The notes below the pieces were generated by a model. The model did not search any database, had not been told where the DNA came from, and saw nothing but the letters and a program-made list of their open reading frames with translations. A program made the position numbers and the translations under genes. DNA of 64,000 nucleotides, taken from positions 249,619 to 313,618 of the forward strand of contig JACPKU010000006.1 of assembly GCA_016186915.1 (NCBI GenBank), given 5' to 3'. This document shows, piece after piece, positions 5,605 through 62,930 of the stretch (positions are counted from its first letter, which is position 1; each line of letters opens with the position of its first letter). This DNA comes from Candidatus Doudnabacteria bacterium. GTDB lineage: Bacteria > Patescibacteriota > Doudnabacteria > UBA920 > O2-02-FULL-48-8.

Positions 5605-5741
5605 AATTCCTGATGCATATTACTTGGCTTTAATTATACCATAAATCTTCAGTATCACCAAAAAAACGAGATAATATTAATATAAAAGATAATAATATGT
5701 GGCGCTATTGATGTTGATGTTAGTTGATGTTATTTTAGAAT

Positions 5742-5768
5742 ACAATTATCCCGATCGGGATTTTTATA
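5742..5768. repeat. 27-bp direct repeat DR-A1 (ACAATTATCCCGATCGGGATTTTTATA) with 14-bp perfect palindrome core ATCCCGATCGGGAT
   Basis: Identical copy at 6357-6383; lies 6 nt downstream of the stop of gene 5775..6353. Confidence 0.9.
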
Positions 5769-5774
5769 ATCGGA

Positions 5775-6353
5775 CTAAACCTTTCTGAGGTTAAATTTTT
5801 CTAATAAATCCTTTTGAATATCAATGTTTTCAGCTATAATCATTCTGACAAATGATCTGACTTCATAAATCTCCTTTAAGAAATCGAGCTCGTCTTCGCA
5901 GGGATAAGGGTACACCCAAACACTCTTTTGAATGGAGGTGAATCCAAGTTCTTTCAGCTTACCTCTAAAAAATTTTCTTGCTGCGCTAAATTTCTCTGGA
6001 ACGTCAAAAATAACCACCCTCCACTTACCATCCCATCGCCTTGGCTTACTTATCACCATTTCATCTAAATTATAACTTAAAAGTCTTTGATGACCATTTT
6101 TTGTTACCTCAACTATTGTTTTTCCCGCATGATTGGACACAGAGATCAGATTCTGCTTTTCAAGATTTCGGAAAGATTGTTCAATTTGCCGGCGATTATA
6201 TTTCTTGAGTCTCTGAAATTCAAATTTACCTAAGCCAAGTTCTTCTGAAAAAATCATTACGCCTAAGGGGCCAGCAACCGGAATAGCTAACATCCCGGCC
6301 GTTGCCACTATTTTTAATATCGTCTTGGCGATTTCTGACCTTTTGGCCTTCAT
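5775..6353 (-). CDS. protein with hydrophobic N-terminus, winged-helix-like middle and Cas2/VapD-like C-terminal domain (paralog A)
   Basis: N-terminal hydrophobic helix ILKIVATAGMLAIPVAGPLGVMIF. C-terminal KWRVVIFDVPEK...GKLKELGFTSIQKSVWVYPY fits the Cas2 beta1-Asp pattern and the R..L...G..vQ.SVF pattern. About 45% identical to ORF 13662..14228. Confidence 0.55.
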   Translation of the reverse strand: MKAKRSEIAKTILKIVATAGMLAIPVAGPLGVMIFSEELGLGKFEFQRLKKYNRRQIEQSFRNLEKQNLISVSNHAGKTIVEVTKNGHQRLLSYNLDEMVISKPRRWDGKWRVVIFDVPEKFSAARKFFRGKLKELGFTSIQKSVWVYPYPCEDELDFLKEIYEVRSFVRMIIAENIDIQKDLLEKFNLRKV

Positions 6354-6356
6354 ATT

Positions 6357-6383
6357 ACAATTATCCCGATCGGGATTTTTATA
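6357..6383. repeat. 27-bp direct repeat DR-A2, identical to DR-A1
   Basis: Lies 3 nt upstream of the ATG of gene 5775..6353. On the minus strand it reads TATAAAAATCCCGATCGGGATAATTGT aat ATG. Confidence 0.9.
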
Positions 6384-6436: not shown

Positions 6437-6898
6437 TCACTCTATCGACACCACTTCATATTCGGTTTCGCCCATGGGGGTTTTCACGCTGACCTTGCTG
6501 CCATTTTTCGCGCCCAACAAAGATTTGCCAACCAGAGATTCGTTGGAGATGCGCCCCGCCGCGGGATTGGCTTCGTTCGATCCAACGATTGTATATTTTA
6601 CTTTTGTACCGTTGGTCTGTAATACCACCGTACAACCGATGGTGACTTCTTCACGGTTCTTATCGTGAGTAATCAGTTCTGCGTTTTTTATCATTTCCTC
6701 CAGCTCCTTGATTCTGCCCTCGATAAATGACTGCTCTTCCTTCGCCTGCGCGTAGTCCGCATTCTCGGATAAATCTCCATGCGAAACAGCTTCCTGAATT
6801 CTCTCAATCACTTCTTTGCGCCGTTCATCTTTAAGGATGCGCAACTCATCCTTTAATTTTTTTAGCCCGTCTTCGGTTAACAATACTTTTTTTTGCAT
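6437..6898 (-). CDS. greA: transcription elongation factor GreA
   Basis: Coiled-coil N-terminus plus FKBP-like C-terminus; 153 aa. Confidence 0.9.
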   Translation of the reverse strand: MQKKVLLTEDGLKKLKDELRILKDERRKEVIERIQEAVSHGDLSENADYAQAKEEQSFIEGRIKELEEMIKNAELITHDKNREEVTIGCTVVLQTNGTKVKYTIVGSNEANPAAGRISNESLVGKSLLGAKNGSKVSVKTPMGETEYEVVSIE

Positions 6899-6954: not shown

Positions 6955-6982
6955 TATTATGTTAATTCTACTTTTTTGTCAA
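6955..6982 (-). promoter_or_regulatory. sigma70-like promoter for greA (TTGACA-N16-TAATAT on the minus strand)
   Basis: The -35 is the reverse complement of tgtcaa at 6977-6982 and the -10 is the reverse complement of atatta at 6955-6960, about 55 nt upstream of the greA ATG. Confidence 0.5.
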
Positions 6983-7126
6983 CCAGGTAGTGAAAATTTG
7001 ATTGGGATAGAAAATCTACACTGACAGCTGAATATAAACCTGGCTGATGATAAAGATTTGATTAGTTGCCTTAAGCTTTAAGTTGTCCCCACTTTGCGGG
7101 ACAACTATCAAATTTCTACTACTTGG
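6983..7126. repeat. mini-element bounded by 18-bp inverted repeats (CCAGGTAGTGAAAATTTG ... CAAATTTCTACTACTTGG), copy 1
   Basis: Same arms bound 23084-23187. Shared internal CTGACAGC motif. Internal hairpin TTGTCCC...GGGACAA. Confidence 0.7.
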
Positions 7127-7514
7127 TCAAGCTCTTCTTTTTCTTATTCTGCAAAAAAGCTTTAATTTCAGCTAAATCTTTTTTAATCTCCACGATTTGG
7201 TGTTCTGCTTTCAAGTCTGTTTCATAATCCAGTTCGGCCCGCAATCGGTCTTTCTTCTCCATTCTGTTCTGACTCATTAAAATTATTGGGGCTTGAACGG
7301 CCGCGGCAACGGAAAGAAATAAGTTGAGCAAGATAAAAGGGTAGGGGTCCCACTTTAGCTCGATAGCAGCCACATTTAGAGCTATCCAAATCAGCATAAA
7401 AAAACCTAACAGCAAAATAAAACGCCAGCTCCCCACAAAAACAGAAAGCGCGTCAGCGGATTTTTCTGCCAAGGACATTTTTTCTTTGTGAAGCTGATTT
7501 AAATTTTTAACCAT
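7119..7514 (-). CDS. membrane protein, DUF1003-like
   Basis: Two TM helices flanked by charged helices; 131 aa. Confidence 0.45.
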   Translation of the reverse strand: MVKNLNQLHKEKMSLAEKSADALSVFVGSWRFILLLGFFMLIWIALNVAAIELKWDPYPFILLNLFLSVAAAVQAPIILMSQNRMEKKDRLRAELDYETDLKAEHQIVEIKKDLAEIKAFLQNKKKKSLTK

Positions 7515-10792: not shown

Positions 10793-10871
10793 AGGTTAGA
10801 ATTTAGAATCTAGAATATAAAATATAGAATATAGCCGGCTCCCAAAAATTCCAAATTCAAAATTCCAAATT

Positions 10872-11930
10872 CTACCTGGGGATTCGCTCAAATTCCGTAG
10901 CTACCAAAACATCTTTCAGCGTTTCCAGGTCTTCCAGCACGATCCCCGCTCCTCTGGCCACAGCGGTTAGTGGATCGTCCGCCACGTATACTGGCATTTG
11001 GGTTTCTTCCGCAACCAGCCGATCCAGTCCTCGAAGCAAGGCGCCGCCACCGGCCAGTGTGATTCCCTGCTCCATGATATCTGCCACGAGCTCTGGCGGG
11101 GTTTCTTCCACAGCCGTTTTGATGCTGTTGACTATCACTCTTACTGATCTCTGGAGCGCCCCTCTGATTTGTTCATCGGTTACAGCCACTTCTTTTGGCA
11201 AGCCAGTAACCAAATCTCTGCCTCGAATTTTGGCCATTAAGGTTTCTTTCATTGGATAAGCCGAGCCGATCTTAATCTTCACATCCTCGGCTGTCCGCTC
11301 ACCCAATAGCAAATTAAACTCGTCTCTGGCAAACTGAATGATGTTTTGATTCATCTCGTCTCCCGCCACGCGGATGCTTCGCGACGTGACAATCCCACCC
11401 AAAGAAATCACTGCAATCTCCGCTGTCCCGCCGCCTATATCTACGATCATTGAACCTGATGCGTCCTGAATCGGCAATCTCGCGCCGATGGCCGCAGCCA
11501 TGGGCTCTTCGATCAAAAAAGCCTGTCTGGCACCCGCGTTGAGAGTAGCGTCCTGAACGGCTCGCCTTTCCACTTCCGTAACCCCCGAGGGAATGCCCAC
11601 CACCACCCGCGGTCTGGATAAAAACCCAAAAGCGGATTGATTAACCTTTTCAATAAAATATCTAAGCATCTGCTCAGTGATTTCAAAATCCGAAATCACG
11701 CCGTCGACAAGCGGCCGGTTTGCCACGATATGGGATGGAGTCCTGCCGACCATCCGCTTGGCTTCTTCGCCGATCGCCAAAATTTGCTTGGTTTTCTGGT
11801 TTACCGCGACAACCGACGGCTCATTAATAACAATGCCCTTGCCGTGAACATAAACAAGGGTGTTGGCTGTTCCCAAATCAATTCCCACATCATTTGAAAA
11901 TTTATCAAAAACGAAATCTAGAAGCGCCAT
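10872..11930 (-). CDS. mreB: actin-like rod shape protein MreB
   Basis: GIDLGTANTLVYV phosphate-1 motif; 352 aa. Confidence 0.9.
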   Translation of the reverse strand: MALLDFVFDKFSNDVGIDLGTANTLVYVHGKGIVINEPSVVAVNQKTKQILAIGEEAKRMVGRTPSHIVANRPLVDGVISDFEITEQMLRYFIEKVNQSAFGFLSRPRVVVGIPSGVTEVERRAVQDATLNAGARQAFLIEEPMAAAIGARLPIQDASGSMIVDIGGGTAEIAVISLGGIVTSRSIRVAGDEMNQNIIQFARDEFNLLLGERTAEDVKIKIGSAYPMKETLMAKIRGRDLVTGLPKEVAVTDEQIRGALQRSVRVIVNSIKTAVEETPPELVADIMEQGITLAGGGALLRGLDRLVAEETQMPVYVADDPLTAVARGAGIVLEDLETLKDVLVATEFERIPR

Positions 11931-13661: not shown

Positions 13662-14228
13662 TCAAAGCTCAAATAACCTAACTAAGTCCTTTTGAATATC
13701 AATCTTTTGCACTGTCAATATTCTAATATAGGATCTCACTTCATAAAGCTCACCGATAAAATCAACTTCATCTTCACAGGAATAGGGATAAATCCAAACA
13801 CTTTTCTGCAATTTATAAAACCCTAGCTCTTTTAGTTTATTACGCAGACACTCCCTCCCCATCTTATATTTTTCGGGAATATCAAAAATTACCACACGCC
13901 ATTTACGATCCCATTTCCAGGGCTTTTTGATTCGCATGTCTTCAAGTTTGTATTTCAATACTTTATTTTGTCCGTTCTTTGTAAGTCCTACCACGGTTGT
14001 GTCACCATTTTGTGATACGCCAATCAATCTTTGCTTCTCTATTCTCCTTAAAGAATCATAGACCTTCCGTCTGCCCACTCTTGGGAGACCAAGTTCGTCG
14101 GCAATCACCATAAATGTCAATGGCCCTGCAACAGGAATTGCCAACACTCCGGCTGCGGCGAGAGTTAGCAAGACGGTTTTAGTGATCTTTAGTCTTCGTT
14201 TTGTTTTTTCAGTGTTCAATTTCTTCAT
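13662..14228 (-). CDS. protein with hydrophobic N-terminus, winged-helix-like middle and Cas2/VapD-like C-terminal domain (paralog B)
   Basis: Same architecture as 5775..6353. WRVVIFDIPEKY...NKLKELGFYKLQKSVWIYPYSCEDEVDF. Confidence 0.55.
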   Translation of the reverse strand: MKKLNTEKTKRRLKITKTVLLTLAAAGVLAIPVAGPLTFMVIADELGLPRVGRRKVYDSLRRIEKQRLIGVSQNGDTTVVGLTKNGQNKVLKYKLEDMRIKKPWKWDRKWRVVIFDIPEKYKMGRECLRNKLKELGFYKLQKSVWIYPYSCEDEVDFIGELYEVRSYIRILTVQKIDIQKDLVRLFEL

Positions 14229-19583: not shown

Positions 19584-20600
19584 TTATTTTGTTGCCAAAA
19601 TACTTTTTTTATAGCTGTCCAAATTGTCCAACGCCACCCCTGTGCCGGCAGCCACGCATAAAATAGCGTTTTCAGCCACGTAAGCTGGAACTCCGGTAGT
19701 TTGGCCAATTAACTTGTCGATATTTCGCAAGAGCGCGGTGCCGCCTGTCAAAACCATGCCCTTATCAATTATATCCGCGGCCAGCTCAGGCGGAGTTTCT
19801 TGCAGGACGGTTCGGACTGCCTGGATGATTTCCCGCAGTTCTTCCTGAATCGCTTCCACGATTTCATTGGTGGAAATTTTAATCGTTTTGGGAAGCCCCT
19901 GTATCAAGTCCCTGCCTCGAATTTCAAGCTTGGTCTCTTTCTCCACTGGTATGGCCGAGCCGATCTTAATTTTAATATCTTCCGCAGTCCGGTCTCCCAC
20001 AGCCAAGCCGTGCTTGCGGCGGATATATTCTGCGATGGCCTGATCAATCTTGTTGCCCGCCACCCTCACAGAAGTCTGGGTCACAATCCCGCCAAGTGAA
20101 AGCACTGCCACGTCCGTGGTGCCGCCGCCAATGTCTATGATCATGTTGCCAGAAGGATTCGCGATGTCTATCCCAGCGCCGATAGCGGCGGCCACGGTTT
20201 CTTTGATTATGTAAGCGGCTTTGGCCCCGGCCGCGTGCGCCGCGTCAATCACCGCTCTTCTTTCAGTGGAAGTGATGCCGCCGGGTACGGAGATCATAAC
20301 TTCAGGGCGAAAAAATCGGACATTGCCCGTGGCCTTGTTAATAAAATACCGAAGCATAGCTTCTGTCACCCGGTAATCTGCAATCACCCCGTCCTTCATA
20401 GGTCTGTGCGCCACGATTGTGTCAGGAGTGCGGCCCAACATATCCTTGGCTTCCTGTCCCACGGCCAAAATCTTATTGTCAACTACAGAAATCGCCACCA
20501 CTGTGGGCTCATTAATAATAATGCCCTGCTTGGGCACGAATACTAAGGTGTTGGCAGTTCCTAAATCTATTCCAATTTGCCGTAAAAACAATCGAGCCAT
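19584..20600 (-). CDS. second MreB/Mbl-like actin homolog
   Basis: GIDLGTANTLVFV; 338 aa; a paralog of 10872..11930. Confidence 0.85.
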   Translation of the reverse strand: MARLFLRQIGIDLGTANTLVFVPKQGIIINEPTVVAISVVDNKILAVGQEAKDMLGRTPDTIVAHRPMKDGVIADYRVTEAMLRYFINKATGNVRFFRPEVMISVPGGITSTERRAVIDAAHAAGAKAAYIIKETVAAAIGAGIDIANPSGNMIIDIGGGTTDVAVLSLGGIVTQTSVRVAGNKIDQAIAEYIRRKHGLAVGDRTAEDIKIKIGSAIPVEKETKLEIRGRDLIQGLPKTIKISTNEIVEAIQEELREIIQAVRTVLQETPPELAADIIDKGMVLTGGTALLRNIDKLIGQTTGVPAYVAENAILCVAAGTGVALDNLDSYKKSILATK

Positions 20601-22922: not shown

Positions 22923-23083
22923 CGACTGTTATTTTAACAAAAAAAGTAAAGATAGGTAAGGCTTGCCAGGAACTAGAAGTTTTTATCTATCAAGCCAAGG
23001 GCTTGATATATTCAGCGAAGCTGATAAAACTTTCAGTTCCCGGCTTGAAACTCCTCTTGTTTTAGCCTAAAATAAGAGGGAAG

Positions 23084-23187
23084 CCAGGTAGTGAAAATTT
23101 GCTCGATGCTATCTGACAGCGTGCAAGGAATATTTTTGGTCTTTATATTTGTCGAATTAACAAAGATAGCAAATTTCTACTACCTGG
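23084..23187. repeat. mini-element bounded by 18-bp inverted repeats (CCAGGTAGTGAAAATTTG ... CAAATTTCTACTACCTGG), copy 2
   Basis: Arms nearly identical to 6983-7126. The right arm abuts the ATG of ORF 23189. Confidence 0.7.
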
Positions 23188-23188
23188 T

Positions 23189-24433
23189 ATGACCCTCAAA
23201 ACCCGCTTTACATTAATCGGCATTGGCATCGTTATTTTCTTAATAATTGTGCCGCCTTTAGTTTTGTTCGCCAGTGGTTTCCAAATTGACTGGTCAAATT
23301 TCGCAATCGTAAAAACCGGAACTTTGGTGGTAGAAACCGAGCCCGGCAAAGCGTTGGTCTACCTTAGTGACAAGAAACAAAGAGGAGCAACGCCTTCCAC
23401 GATCCGTTTTTTGCTTCCCAAAGATTATCAAGTCAGGATCGAGAAACCAGGTTACCAGACCTGGACCAAACGGCTGTCTGTCAAATCCCAGCTCGTGACT
23501 TGGGCTAACCTCAACCGCAAATTTATCGCCTTATTTTTATCTGAGCCACTGCCTCTGGTGGATTTTAGCTCTGACCAAACTTTTCTCTCTTCCGACCAGA
23601 GAGAGCTTGTCTTTTCGGTAAACGGCGAGTTTTTTTTCCTCTCTGCAGGCTCTGAAAAACCTGTGAGCTTGGGTCCGGCCACTGCTCTGGCTCCTCCGTT
23701 TGAATTTAATGCCGGACTGGTTTGGGATAACGGACAAAAAGTATACGAAGCGCTAAAAAAATTCTCCGAAATAAATTTGTCGATCTATTCCCCAACGCCA
23801 AAAATATCAACCAACGGCACCTTCACAATTCTGGCTTCCGCTGATCAACTTTGGCTTGTGACTTCTTCAGGCACAGAAGTTATAGCCACTGACATCGATG
23901 CTTATCTATTAGAGAATGACATTTTGTGGTTTATCAAAAATTCCTCGCTGCAAAGCCTAAATCTCACAACCAAGGAATTGCGAACCGTAAAGCAGGACTT
24001 GCCACGCTTTAAAAAAGGCCAAATCATTCGATCGAGCAATTATGTTTTTCTACTCCTCGATGGAGACTTATACTTTGCCAACGAAAGTTTAGATAAAATT
24101 GCCCAAGCCGTTGTGTTCAGTTCATGGAATTACGGCGCGGATAAACTGTTAATTGCCACCAACAACGAAATTAGTCTGTTTGATCCGCAAAACCAAAAAG
24201 TCGACCTCATTCACCGCAGTGTAAGTAATATCAGTAACCCTGTATTCAATGCCGAAACCGGATACGTATTCTTCAGCAATGAGGGCAGAATAAAAGCCAT
24301 CGAACTTGATGGCCGGGACCAAAGAAATATTTTTGAATTTGGAGAAGCGGGATTAGGATTTACCTTGTCAAACAACGGAAAACTGCTATACGTTTTCAGC
24401 GATGAAAACATAAGAATATTGGAAATAAGATAG
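23189..24433 (+). CDS. membrane-anchored PEGA-domain plus beta-propeller-like protein
   Basis: N-terminal TM. PEGA-like TGTLVVETEPGKALVYLSDKKQRGATPSTI...KPGYQTW. Repeated beta-strand modules. It is the only large plus-strand gene in the window. Confidence 0.55.
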   Translation: MTLKTRFTLIGIGIVIFLIIVPPLVLFASGFQIDWSNFAIVKTGTLVVETEPGKALVYLSDKKQRGATPSTIRFLLPKDYQVRIEKPGYQTWTKRLSVKSQLVTWANLNRKFIALFLSEPLPLVDFSSDQTFLSSDQRELVFSVNGEFFFLSAGSEKPVSLGPATALAPPFEFNAGLVWDNGQKVYEALKKFSEINLSIYSPTPKISTNGTFTILASADQLWLVTSSGTEVIATDIDAYLLENDILWFIKNSSLQSLNLTTKELRTVKQDLPRFKKGQIIRSSNYVFLLLDGDLYFANESLDKIAQAVVFSSWNYGADKLLIATNNEISLFDPQNQKVDLIHRSVSNISNPVFNAETGYVFFSNEGRIKAIELDGRDQRNIFEFGEAGLGFTLSNNGKLLYVFSDENIRILEIR

Positions 24434-35483: not shown

Positions 35484-35768
35484 TTATTCCCATTTACCCC
35501 ACTCGCCAGTGATTAATTTTTTTTTCTTCTTTCTCGTCCAACCTTTTAATTGTTTTTCACGTAAACTTGCCTCTTCAAAACTTTCATATTCTTCTAAATA
35601 AACTAGTCGCTTTGGTTTGTGCTGTTTTGTATATTCTCCCCCTAAACCAGATATATGCTGGATCCATCTCTGATCAGGCTTCCAAGTTCTGCCAACATAA
35701 TAAGACTTGTCTTCGCATTCTATTATATACACATACCATTTCCACTTCATACGAAATGCCTTCGACAA
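35484..35768 (-). CDS. GIY-YIG nuclease-domain protein (UPF0213-like)
   Basis: YVYIIECEDKSYYVGRT; 94 aa. Confidence 0.7.
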   Translation of the reverse strand: MSKAFRMKWKWYVYIIECEDKSYYVGRTWKPDQRWIQHISGLGGEYTKQHKPKRLVYLEEYESFEEASLREKQLKGWTRKKKKKLITGEWGKWE

Positions 35769-36754: not shown

Positions 36755-36782
36755 CATTCATACACGACTGTATGAATGTATT
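36755..36782. repeat. 28-bp perfect palindrome CATTCATACA-CGAC-TGTATGAATG(TATT), copy 2
   Basis: Identical copies at 1-28, 37283-37310 and 49569-49595. Its last T plus the next A form the stop codon of the YerC-like gene. Confidence 0.9.
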
Positions 36783-37272
36783 AACCTTCTAAGGTTCTTT
36801 TTGCAGAACGTTGTTTCAGTTTCTTTCTGATAAAACGGTTTGCCGCTGGAACTCCTTCGGTGACTAAATTTGCCAAAAATGTTTCGGCCGGAGCTTTTCG
36901 GCGCACCCTTCTTTCTAAAATTGCTTGTCTTTCTTCGCGCTTCCCTTGGTATTTATGTTCCAGATCTTGTAACTTAGAGTGTACCTTTCTCAATCCATCG
37001 CCATGAATCACGAGAATATTACTGACATTATTAATAGTTCTGGAAGTAACCCTCAAAGCATTTATTATTTCTTCATAGGTTTGACCTTGAAGTAGTCGTC
37101 GCGCAATTTCTAATCTTTTAGCGAACATTTTGTATTCCGTATGTGTAAACAAATCTTTAAACAGCAACCTGATATCCTCCTTAGAATCCATCAGAGTAAA
37201 TGCGGCCCATAAATTGTTCACATAGTGACCAAAATGCTCGGGATCTAAATGTAGTCTTGAAAGTTTTGTCAT
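36781..37272 (-). CDS. YerC/YecD (TrpR-like) family HTH protein with basic C-terminal tail
   Basis: LFTHTEYKMFAKRLEIARRLLQGQTYEEIINALRVTSRTINNVSNILVIHGDG matches the YerC pattern. Likely start is MTKLS. Confidence 0.6.
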   Translation of the reverse strand: MTKLSRLHLDPEHFGHYVNNLWAAFTLMDSKEDIRLLFKDLFTHTEYKMFAKRLEIARRLLQGQTYEEIINALRVTSRTINNVSNILVIHGDGLRKVHSKLQDLEHKYQGKREERQAILERRVRRKAPAETFLANLVTEGVPAANRFIRKKLKQRSAKRTLEG

Positions 37273-37282
37273 TTTTTTTTCA

Positions 37283-37310
37283 CATTCATACACGACTGTA
37301 TGAATGTATT
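37283..37310. repeat. 28-bp perfect palindrome, copy 3, about 10 nt upstream of the YerC-like start
   Basis: Seen in the sequence. Confidence 0.9.
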
Positions 37311-37323
37311 GTATCAATAAACT

Positions 37324-49568: not shown

Positions 49569-49595
49569 CATTCATACACGACTGTATGAATGTAT
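49569..49595. repeat. 28-bp palindrome, copy 4 (27/28), intergenic
   Basis: Seen in the sequence; about 60 bp upstream of the -35 of ORF 49690. Confidence 0.9.
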
Positions 49596-49654
49596 GGCAA
49601 ATCCCAACCCCCATATTTGCAGGCAACACAAGCAACAATACACAATACTTCTTT

Positions 49655-62815: not shown

Positions 62816-62930
62816 GGGATTGTTGCAAAATTAACCTTCGGAAGCCGGTTCGTCCGGCTGAGAAAGTAGGCTGCATCCCGCCGAAGTTCCCACGAGGCGG
62901 GATGACAGCCGATATTTTTGCAACAATCCC
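62816..62930. ncRNA. structured element closed by a perfect 15-bp inverted repeat (GGGATTGTTGCAAAA ... TTTTGCAACAATCCC) enclosing nested and pseudoknot-capable hairpins
   Basis: GCCGG-TTCGT-CCGGC hairpin. GGCTGCATCCCGCC...GGCGGGATG-A-CAGCC helix whose loop CCGAAG can pair with the upstream CTTCGG. No ORF. Confidence 0.4.

Follow-up and report, generated by a model that had tools for sequence, protein, structure and literature searches.

Inverted-repeat mini-elements of a Doudnabacteria genome as likely noncoding members of a GIY-YIG-bearing mobile element family in Patescibacteria

Two short segments of a Candidatus Doudnabacteria genome, at positions 6983–7126 and 23084–23187 of a 64,000-nucleotide stretch of contig JACPKU010000006.1 (the whole stretch analyzed, hereafter the window), are each closed by inverted repeats, and they raise the question of what such paired arms do beside bacterial genes. 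An earlier reading of the letters alone (the sequence-only reading) had offered a mobile miniature element, a structured RNA, or a regulator-binding palindrome. We consider it likely that both segments are nonautonomous members, lacking an open reading frame (ORF) in the manner of miniature inverted-repeat transposable elements (MITEs), of a mobile element family of Patescibacteria, or candidate phyla radiation (CPR), that combines terminal inverted repeats with a GIY-YIG nuclease gene. The family is large and apparently undescribed. The first of the three proposals is favored by target-site duplications, many copies per genome, absence from the syntenic sites of relatives, and an ORF-bearing form with the same ends.

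The two elements lie at the coordinates, and have the arm sequences, that had been described for them. Copy 1 (6983..7126, plus strand, 144 nt) has its GA-type arm first, which we call the canonical orientation, and its host genes are on the minus strand. Its left arm (6983..7002, plus strand, GA type, CCAGGTAGTGAAAATTTGAT) fits the family consensus, and its right arm (7107..7126, plus strand, ATCAAATTTCTACTACTTGG) is the reverse complement of the AG type. Copy 2 (23084..23187, plus strand, 104 nt) fills the space between a promoter-like site and the ATG (23189) of a PEGA-domain gene; its left arm is CCAGGTAGTGAAAATTTGCT (23084..23103, plus strand, GA type) and its right arm AGCAAATTTCTACTACCTGG (23168..23187, plus strand), followed by a T and the PEGA gene ATG. 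Taken as 18-mers, the arms of copy 1 are CCAGGTAGTGAAAATTTG at 6983–7000 and CAAATTTCTACTACTTGG at 7109–7126; the left arm of copy 2 at 23084–23101 is identical to that of copy 1, and its right arm is CAAATTTCTACTACCTGG at 23170–23187. With up to three mismatches allowed, CCAGGTAGTGAAAATTTG matched the window four times, at the two left arms and, on the opposite strand, the two right arms, against 0.04 matches expected from shuffled sequence and no instance of four or more matches in 100 shuffles. A repeat finder lengthened the arms of both copies to 20–21 nt, with 86–90% complementarity. The non-Watson-Crick sites fall at the same two adjacent positions in both copies, GA in one arm and AG in the other, and the right arm of copy 1 has CTTGG instead of CCTGG, giving a G.U pair on the plus strand.

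Both copies fold as a long closed hairpin on either strand (z −4.7 to −6.5 versus shuffles). Their interiors cannot be aligned with each other except at the octamer CTGACAGC, which the sequence-only reading had reported; the octamer is indeed present in both copies and is not a feature of the family, in which only a loose central YCTGR/YTGGTA motif recurs. A GC-rich internal hairpin, GTTGTCCC-CACTTTGC-GGGACAAC (7082..7105, plus strand), lies beside one arm of copy 1; a hairpin at that position is found in many short family members and is absent from copy 2. Neither copy contains an ORF of 40 aa or more. Rfam gave no match anywhere in the window at gathering score and only noise for both copies at E ≤10, and no match at gathering score, introns included, on the elements in 20 related loci.

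The arms extend far beyond this genome. Scanning one-genome-per-species contigs with the pattern CCAGGTAGTNNAAATTTG returned at least 117 loci, and pairing of the arms with three mismatches allowed gave 59 distinct paired elements among the matches listed. Nearly all hosts are metagenome-assembled genomes (MAGs), assigned to Parcubacteria, Portnoybacteria, Saccharibacteria, Doudnabacteria, Berkelbacteria, Sungbacteria, and "Patescibacteria," and one Parcubacteria MAG holds at least 10 copies among the matches listed. Where a single arm matched in a non-CPR genome, both N positions of the pattern are filled by other bases, and such matches are attributed to chance for 16 fixed bases; viral contigs gave no match to the arm pattern. 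Most of the 59 elements listed measure 120–154 nt, with a few of 77–111 nt, one of 226 nt, and four of 310–323 nt, and every one of them pairs a GA arm with an AG arm. The family terminal inverted repeats are 20 nt long and read CCAGGTAGTGAAAATT(T/C)GA(C/T) ... (G/A)TC(A/G)AATTTCTACTACCTGG, with spacers between the arms of 37 to 330 nt.

An exact 4-bp direct duplication flanks 41 of these 59 elements, compared with 19% in mismatched-pair controls (p ~1e-16). The duplicated 4-mers are chiefly TATG (20 elements) and CATA (9), with CCTC/GAGG/CTCC and a number of singletons, among them TCAA (copy 1 of the window), AATA, CGTG, and TTTG. Insertion sites are also strongly patterned: 36 of the 59 lie within 0–1 nt of a start codon that opens an ORF of ≥60 aa, usually with the junction ..CCTGG-T-ATG, and the end of the upstream gene is often only a few bases from the other arm. 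Because the ATG is duplicated at a start-codon insertion, the host ORF stays intact. Another set of elements, found largely in Saccharibacteria and Berkelbacteria MAGs, occupies Shine-Dalgarno sequences resembling GGAGG. In two of the three reading frames, the arms contain a stop codon (CC-AGG-TAG; ATT-TGA in TTTGA variants), and the arm TAG ends several upstream genes, including the DUF1003 gene beside copy 1, possibly mreB, and those at loci with a gap of −8.

The four longest reference-genome elements (310–323 bp) each hold a GIY-YIG ORF of 87–94 aa (PF01541, 1.3e-18). A degenerate pattern from the alignment of these four proteins, scanned against metagenome contigs, yielded at least 80 loci and 230 confirmed relatives. 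Among the 82 ORFs of the metagenome loci listed, 67 have arms on both sides at fixed distances (≤4 mismatches). The 60 distinct full-length elements listed span 305–374 bp, mostly 311–328, and carry nothing except the GIY-YIG ORF, which is intact in 58 of them. They resemble the short form in their sites as well, with a 4-bp duplication in 40 of the 60 (TATG 27, TGGA 6, and seven other 4-mers once each) and a gene start within 0–1 nt in 37. Protein clustering places at least 2751 clusters at 90% identity in the GIY-YIG family, whose members are annotated at source as "GIY-YIG nuclease family protein" or, wrongly, as "excinuclease ABC subunit C." Y6, Y17, G19, R27, and E51 are invariant in the four-sequence alignment and lie in the GIY/YIG motifs; given the fold, we take them to be the catalytic residues. 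The nearest solved structures are UPF0213 proteins (1zg2, 3.9e-9; 1ywl), followed by SLX1 (~1e-4).

The ORF is closely fitted to the arms. In 27 of 58 elements, its ATG comes 27 nt into the element, about 7 nt past the arm, and its stop lies 19–20 nt from the element end in 39 of 58, overlapping the arm; at the modal 19 nt, the last base of the ORF's TAG is the first base of the 3' arm. The orientation of the ORF relative to GA/AG arm polarity is flipped in about 9 of 67 elements. In 26 of 38 cases, the start codon in the left flank is in frame with the nuclease ORF and open into it (p = 1e-5). Since the ORF is thus mostly in frame with the duplicated host ATG, gene callers predict proteins starting MPGSENS..IMF; database proteins of ~100 aa do often begin MPGSENS(T/I)AIMF.., in which PGSENS is translated arm. 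The sequence-only reading was silent on the 4-bp duplication, the link to start codons, and the GIY-YIG nuclease gene.

Selection on the arms was assessed from 96 distinct arm pairs, aligned from short and full-length elements and scored at 22 positions, of which the two innermost are outside the arm and pair poorly. Compensatory changes occur in 13 of the 20 arm pairs, with examples such as CCGGG/CCCGG, GGCAG/CTGCC, GGAAG/CTTCC, TTCGA/TCGAA, and ACTCGA/TCGAGT. The covariation score was 0.199, compared with 0.108 in shuffles (0 of 500 reached 0.199) and at most 0.05 in slid registers. Of the 96 rows, 95 have G.U at position 10 × 39 and all 96 have an A.C mismatch at position 11 × 38, and the core around the mismatch, GTGAAA/TTCTAC, is invariant. 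Arm covariation together with this fixed mismatch core indicates that the stem is selected as a structure with a fixed two-position irregularity, and the alignment thus argues clearly that pairing of the arms is under selection. Wobble pairs favored the GA-first strand weakly (23 versus 11, p = 0.058), and arm polarity is coupled neither to ORF direction nor to host-gene direction.

What lies between the arms is less orderly. No conserved interior beyond the arms emerged from the alignment of 52 short elements or from that of the two window interiors. In the host-gene orientation, many short elements consist of a 5' arm, a GC-rich hairpin, an A-rich stretch, a YTGGTAtaat-like motif, and a 3' arm. 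At 55–75 nt upstream of the ATG, the motif looks like an extended −10 box and also like the 3' junction of the element (CCTGG|TATG); in some short copies, the 3' arm also pairs with an arm-like segment of the interior. The motif could therefore serve as a promoter inside the element or be what is left of tandem copies whose inner arms have decayed. When YTGGTAtaat was tested as a promoter, there was no strand bias in the arm-defined orientation and a weak bias by host gene (16 versus 8 elements scoring ≥8).

How the two window copies came to occupy their sites can be read from their surroundings and from relatives. Copy 1 lies between the DUF1003 gene (7119–7514, minus strand) and greA (6437–6898, minus strand). 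As the sequence-only reading had noted, its left arm adjoins the −35 box of a greA promoter-like site (TTGACA at 6982–6977, 17 nt from TAATAT), and the stop codon of the upstream DUF1003 gene (TAG, 7119–7121, minus strand) falls inside its right arm. The target-site duplication is TCAA on the plus strand, on the left at 6979..6982, where its minus-strand form TTGA supplies the first four bases of the −35 box TTGACA (6982–6977), and on the right at 7127..7130, inside the last codons of the DUF1003 gene. The closest relative fetched (L126; DUF1003 protein 68% identical, same PBP2-DUF1003-greA synteny) has an uninterrupted ..CCATTGACAAAAAAAAGG.. where the window has TTGA-[element]-TTGACAAAAAAG, or, over a longer stretch, ..AGCTTGA-[element]-TTGACAAAAAAGTAG... 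With copy 1 in place, the DUF1003 ORF ends ..SLTK* at the TAG in the arm; deleting copy 1 and one TTGA in silico gives an end of ..SLTKK*, like the ..PLTKKRP* of L126. From this comparison we infer that copy 1 inserted into the TTGA of a greA −35 box that overlapped the end of the DUF1003 gene. Such an insertion would have changed the gene end from ..SLTKK* to ..SLTK* and regenerated the greA −35 box through the duplication. Copy 1 now stands at the 3' end of the DUF1003 mRNA.

Copy 2 is flanked by murB (minus strand) and the PEGA-domain gene (23189–24433, plus strand), and its right arm adjoins the ATG, as had also been stated, with 1 nt between them. Upstream of it are the promoter-like TTGAAA at 23045–23050 and, after 17 nt, TAAAAT at 23068–23073; 10 nt, the element, a T, and the ATG follow. 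In two relatives with the same synteny (L209 and L210; PEGA protein 58% and 44% identical), the spacers are arm-free and measure 77 and 42 bp, compared with 266 bp in the window, so that relatives syntenic at either locus are without the corresponding window copy. In both (L209, 1465–1503; L210, 1480–1503), TAAAAT stands exactly 7 nt before the PEGA ATG with no Shine-Dalgarno sequence, which suggests leaderless transcripts in these Doudnabacteria-like genomes. Given this TAAAAT-N7-ATG arrangement and the same promoter-like site in the window, the PEGA gene looks to have been leaderless originally, and copy 2 looks like an insertion between its −10 box and its ATG. The PEGA gene would now have a leader of ~108 nt, formed by copy 2 and folding into a hairpin. 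No terminator-like site was predicted at copy 1 or copy 2.

The two window copies look like old, fixed residents, given the G.U pair in one arm of copy 1 and the missing duplication at copy 2, and they are themselves probably inert relics.

A third right-arm-like half had been pointed out at 10855–10871, between mreB and mreC. It proved to be one arm of a hairpin-forming spacer, and its status as a copy is statistically insecure. The spacer (10793..10879, minus strand, 87 nt) fills the gap between mreB and mreC, starting with CCAGGTAG and ending at the mreC ATG, and the TAG of CCAGGTAG is the mreB stop codon, just as the arm of copy 1 supplies that of the DUF1003 gene. It folds as a long hairpin (−22.7 kcal/mol, z −3.8) from the arms AGGTAGAATTTGGAA and TTCTAAATTCTAACCT, both without the 4-nt mismatch core. 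CCRRGTAG occurs five times in the window, four of them in known arms, and 1.16 Mb of related loci yielded no further example of the mreB-mreC arm variant. We regard the spacer with low confidence as a possible degenerate third copy. An arm-like 14-mer at 698 lies inside an ORF and was set aside as a chance match.

Signs of recent movement come from elsewhere in the family. The full-length elements of loci L136 and L142, at the same host gene start, are identical at 309 of 311 positions (99.4%) between flanks that are 82–85% identical, which points to recent spread of the full-length element. At another locus (L138), a near-identical 311-bp element links a left flank matching that of L136 (100%) to a right flank matching that of L142 (99.6%); either recombination at the element or a chimeric assembly across the repeat could explain this. 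Tandem arrays with a single shared TATG are found at L163, L198, and L203, and tandem or nested elements with one shared 4-mer at L163, L165, L186, L198, and L203 (for example, ..CTACTACCTGG-TATG-CCAGGTAGTG..), the target being reused after insertion. A subfamily with CCGGG/CCCGG arms (L132, L143, L146, L151, L152, L194, and L197) sits at a conserved target, ..TTAYTGGACCGGATAA.., with a TGGA duplication, and its ORF reads out through the 3' arm (..STTRWTG); its behavior looks like site-specific homing.

How might such an element move? We give about an even chance to a mechanism in which the nuclease mobilizes its own element and, in trans, the ORF-less copies, acting on folded arms with 4-nt staggered cuts. 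What the nuclease would recognize is the hairpin or cruciform formed by the paired arms, with its G.T/A.C mismatch core, and action on folded arms would parallel that of its SLX1-like relatives on branched DNA. The prevalence of TATG may, with similarly balanced confidence, be an enzyme preference reinforced by selection, as only an ATG-containing duplication would both feed the nuclease ORF and keep the host gene intact. The element would in this way borrow host transcription and translation signals, the duplicated host ATG driving the nuclease as an MPGSENS.. fusion and the second ATG copy preserving the host gene. We hold more tentatively, at somewhat less than even chances, that the arm stem folds the insert away in mRNA and that, with termination 20 nt before the host AUG in the full-length form, the host gene is translated. 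ORF-less forms would be tolerated for the same reason, their inserts being folded away by the arm stem. That the family constitutes a new class of prokaryotic transposable element, with an SLX1/YhbQ-like GIY-YIG nuclease of ~90 aa as its sole protein, folded-arm recognition, and start-codon insertion, is likewise a proposal that we would place a little below even.

Several observations weigh against the reading of the window copies as members of a mobile family driven by this nuclease. At copy 2 the flanking 4-mers are GAAG and TATG, without a clear target duplication. The relatives that lack the copies (L126, L209, and L210) are distant, at 44–68% protein identity, and flank-to-flank BLAST among 210 fetched loci returned filled orthologous sites and no empty ones. 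The material yielded no case of excision or insertion and no pair of near-identical strains with one site filled and the other empty; both window copies are present in every same-population contig. The 64-kb window holds no full-length element, and its only small GIY-YIG gene (35484–35768, minus strand, 94 aa; PF01541, 1.8e-19) has no flanking arms; its protein is ~36% identical over 64 aa to one element-borne nuclease, and it was rejected as a partner as a member of a different subfamily. The interiors of short elements align neither with one another nor with the ORF, so that an origin as deletion derivatives is conjectural, and 12 of the 38 insertions at start codons do not share the frame of the ORF. 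The TATG preference could come from selection rather than enzyme specificity. Finally, we know of no strand transfer or integrase activity in GIY-YIG hydrolases, so the origin of the 4-bp duplication is conjectural and the ORF is possibly a passenger.

One alternative is that the family is an ordinary MITE family moved in trans by a conventional transposase, for instance, one of the DDE type, with the GIY-YIG ORF as a passenger or an invading homing-endonuclease gene. Terminal inverted repeats with a 4-bp duplication are the classical DDE signature, GIY-YIG enzymes are hydrolases and are not known to act as integrases, and the ORF occurs in both orientations relative to arm polarity (the ~9 of 67 flipped). 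Against this, ~1.2 Mb of fetched loci yielded neither a larger element bounded by these arms nor a distant partner for an arm; the great majority of listed GIY-YIG ORFs (67 of 82) are bracketed precisely by arms, with fixed spacing at both ends; and covariation of the arms around a mismatch core fits recognition of a folded structure better than recognition of two independent sites. We judge a conventional transposase unlikely, though still a real contender. Somewhat more plausible, if still doubtful, is that the window copies now serve mainly as RNA elements, which would be compatible with a mobile origin: an RNase III-type processing site, a stabilizer, a terminator, or a bridge to the AUG, in which the 20-bp arm stem brings upstream initiation signals beside the start codon. 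In its favor, pairing is selected with G.U tolerated, both copies fold strongly and are fixed in all same-population contigs, copy 1 marks an mRNA 3' end, copy 2 makes up the whole PEGA leader between −10 box and AUG, and CPR rRNA genes tolerate short as well as GIY-YIG-encoding nonintron insertions (PMC11270868). The interiors, however, are unconserved and without an Rfam match, wobble pairs lean weakly to one strand (23:11, p = 0.058), arm polarity is independent of host-gene direction, and the terminator prediction was negative. A structured RNA with an 18-bp closing stem, as envisaged by the sequence-only reading, is a possibility that gains from the selected pairing of the arms and loses from the unconserved interiors, the missing Rfam match, and the lack of an assignable folding strand.

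The third proposal, that the arms are paired operators or a regulator-binding palindrome controlling greA and the PEGA gene, draws on the position of both copies beside a promoter or start codon. The same arms, however, flank unrelated genes in several candidate phyla, are accompanied by 4-bp duplications, stand 37 to 330 nt apart, form tandem arrays, and can enclose a nuclease ORF, and we give this explanation next to no weight. The copies and their family show the usual features of MITEs: noncoding units under about 500 bp, terminal inverted repeats, multiple copies per genome, and a longer coding element with the same ends. A target duplication of fixed length is seen in the family (4 bp) and at copy 1 and is missing at copy 2. 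In these terms, the element behaves as a MITE that has a coding partner.

The family bears partial resemblances to several known systems. Correia elements (CREE/NEMIS) are noncoding intergenic units of ~100–150 bp with inverted repeats of at least 20 nt and a short duplication, cotranscribed as hairpins; they have a TA duplication and conserved interiors and are confined to Neisseria, and we know of no coding partner for them. The family shares the size of ~100–150 bp, terminal inverted repeats of at least 20 nt, a short duplication, many intergenic copies, and presumably cotranscription as long hairpins but differs in its 4-bp duplication (mostly TATG), unrelated interiors, distribution over several CPR phyla, and ORF-bearing form. 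Membership among the Correia elements was rejected on the 4-bp duplication, the different arms, and the patescibacterial hosts. Rickettsia palindromic elements (RPEs) are similar as palindromic mini-elements that reduced genomes retain within genes or along their edges; RPEs interrupt ORFs in frame and become part of the translated product, whereas the family sits at start codons and in spacers, with arm stops in two of three frames. The IS200/IS605, PATE, and REP-RAYT systems are likewise small elements, recognized through folded imperfect hairpins instead of duplex sequence and inserted beside a fixed tetra- or pentanucleotide, but they have a subterminal hairpin at each end, no target duplication, and a Y1 HUH transposase. 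IS200/IS605, REP/REPIN, and RAYT were therefore excluded, as here the two ends pair with each other, 4 bp are duplicated, and the partner ORF encodes a GIY-YIG protein. Integron attC sites share imperfect inverted repeats, a variable center of 50–140 nt, and conserved unpaired positions in a covarying stem; they were rejected because there is no R''/R' core (RYYYAAC/GTTRRRY), the outer ends are CCAGG/CCTGG, there is no cassette array or integrase context, a duplication is present, and the copies sit singly beside housekeeping genes. A resemblance to Cas12a repeats fails on the features tested.

The nuclease itself invites comparison with GIY-YIG homing endonuclease genes (I-TevI, Seg), with which it shares the domain (PF01541), a weak TIGR01453 match, and selfish behavior; the near-identical element at the same site in diverged backgrounds (L136 and L142) is homing-like as well. 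The I-TevI and Seg enzymes, however, have at least 200 aa with separate DNA-binding domains, lack inverted repeats and target duplications, and move into homologous alleles only, whereas the family has a bare catalytic domain of ~90 aa and occupies many nonhomologous sites. Among its members, only full-length ones have the catalytic domain, the window copies being without an ORF. Identity with a homing endonuclease gene was rejected on the lack of a separate DNA-binding domain (87–94 aa), of any Rfam intron in 20 loci, and of arms in viral contigs. UPF0213/YhbQ (COG2827) and the structure-specific nuclease SLX1 share the small URI/GIY-YIG fold and are the best solved-structure matches; they are cellular proteins not reported in a repeat-bounded mobile unit, and SLX1 needs SLX4 and has a RING/PHD domain. 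Full-text literature searches turned up no description of repeat-bounded GIY-YIG mini-elements, and no such family was found in Rfam. CPR rRNA genes have been reported to contain GIY-YIG-encoding nonintron insertions along with unclassified ORF-less insertions shorter than 200 bp (PMC11270868), and both kinds may belong to the family described here.

Other repeats in the window are recorded here as separate observations. A 38-nt sequence, CATTCATACACGACTGTATGAATGTATT, occurs four times (1–38, 36755–36792, 37283–37320, and 49569–49606) and holds a perfect hairpin of 11 bp, ACATTCATACA-CGAC-TGTATGAATGT; it may be terminator-like or operator-like, or represent a further family of small repeats. 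A PaaX-like gene (5775–6353) is bracketed by a pair of 35-nt direct repeats (5734–5768 and 6349–6383; 91% identity), each with the hairpin ATCCCGATCGGGAT followed by a T-run. At 62816–62930, an 18-nt inverted repeat (GGGATTGTTGCAAAATTA / TATTTTTGCAACAATCCC) surrounds a 79-nt interior that is GC rich in an AT-rich genome and contains internal hairpins; this segment overlaps mechanical ORFs and has no Rfam match at E ≤1. Segments 11260–11885 and 19954–20573, 8.7 kb apart and 75–83% identical, belong to two MreB-like genes (10872–11930 and another around 20 kb); actin-like genes are thus present in the window as paralogs. Positions 5805–5930 and 13683–13808 share a repeat of 126 nt with 74% identity. 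Neither tRNA genes nor, at gathering score, Rfam families were detected in the 64-kb window.

In sum, if the GIY-YIG ORF does mobilize these elements, a nuclease fold not previously known to drive prokaryotic DNA transposition would be doing so, and at ~310–325 bp the element would be the smallest autonomous mobile DNA known, marking an extreme lower size limit. Its strategy would also be unusual, in that the element would parasitize the host start codon and translation signals instead of bringing its own. Given its abundance in Patescibacteria, the family affects gene-start annotation, operon structure, and assembly: MPGSENS.. fusions are called as genes, small proteins are misnamed "excinuclease ABC subunit C," and contigs can become chimeric at the repeat. 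The combination of a compact nuclease and a structured recognition site could also be of interest as a tool.

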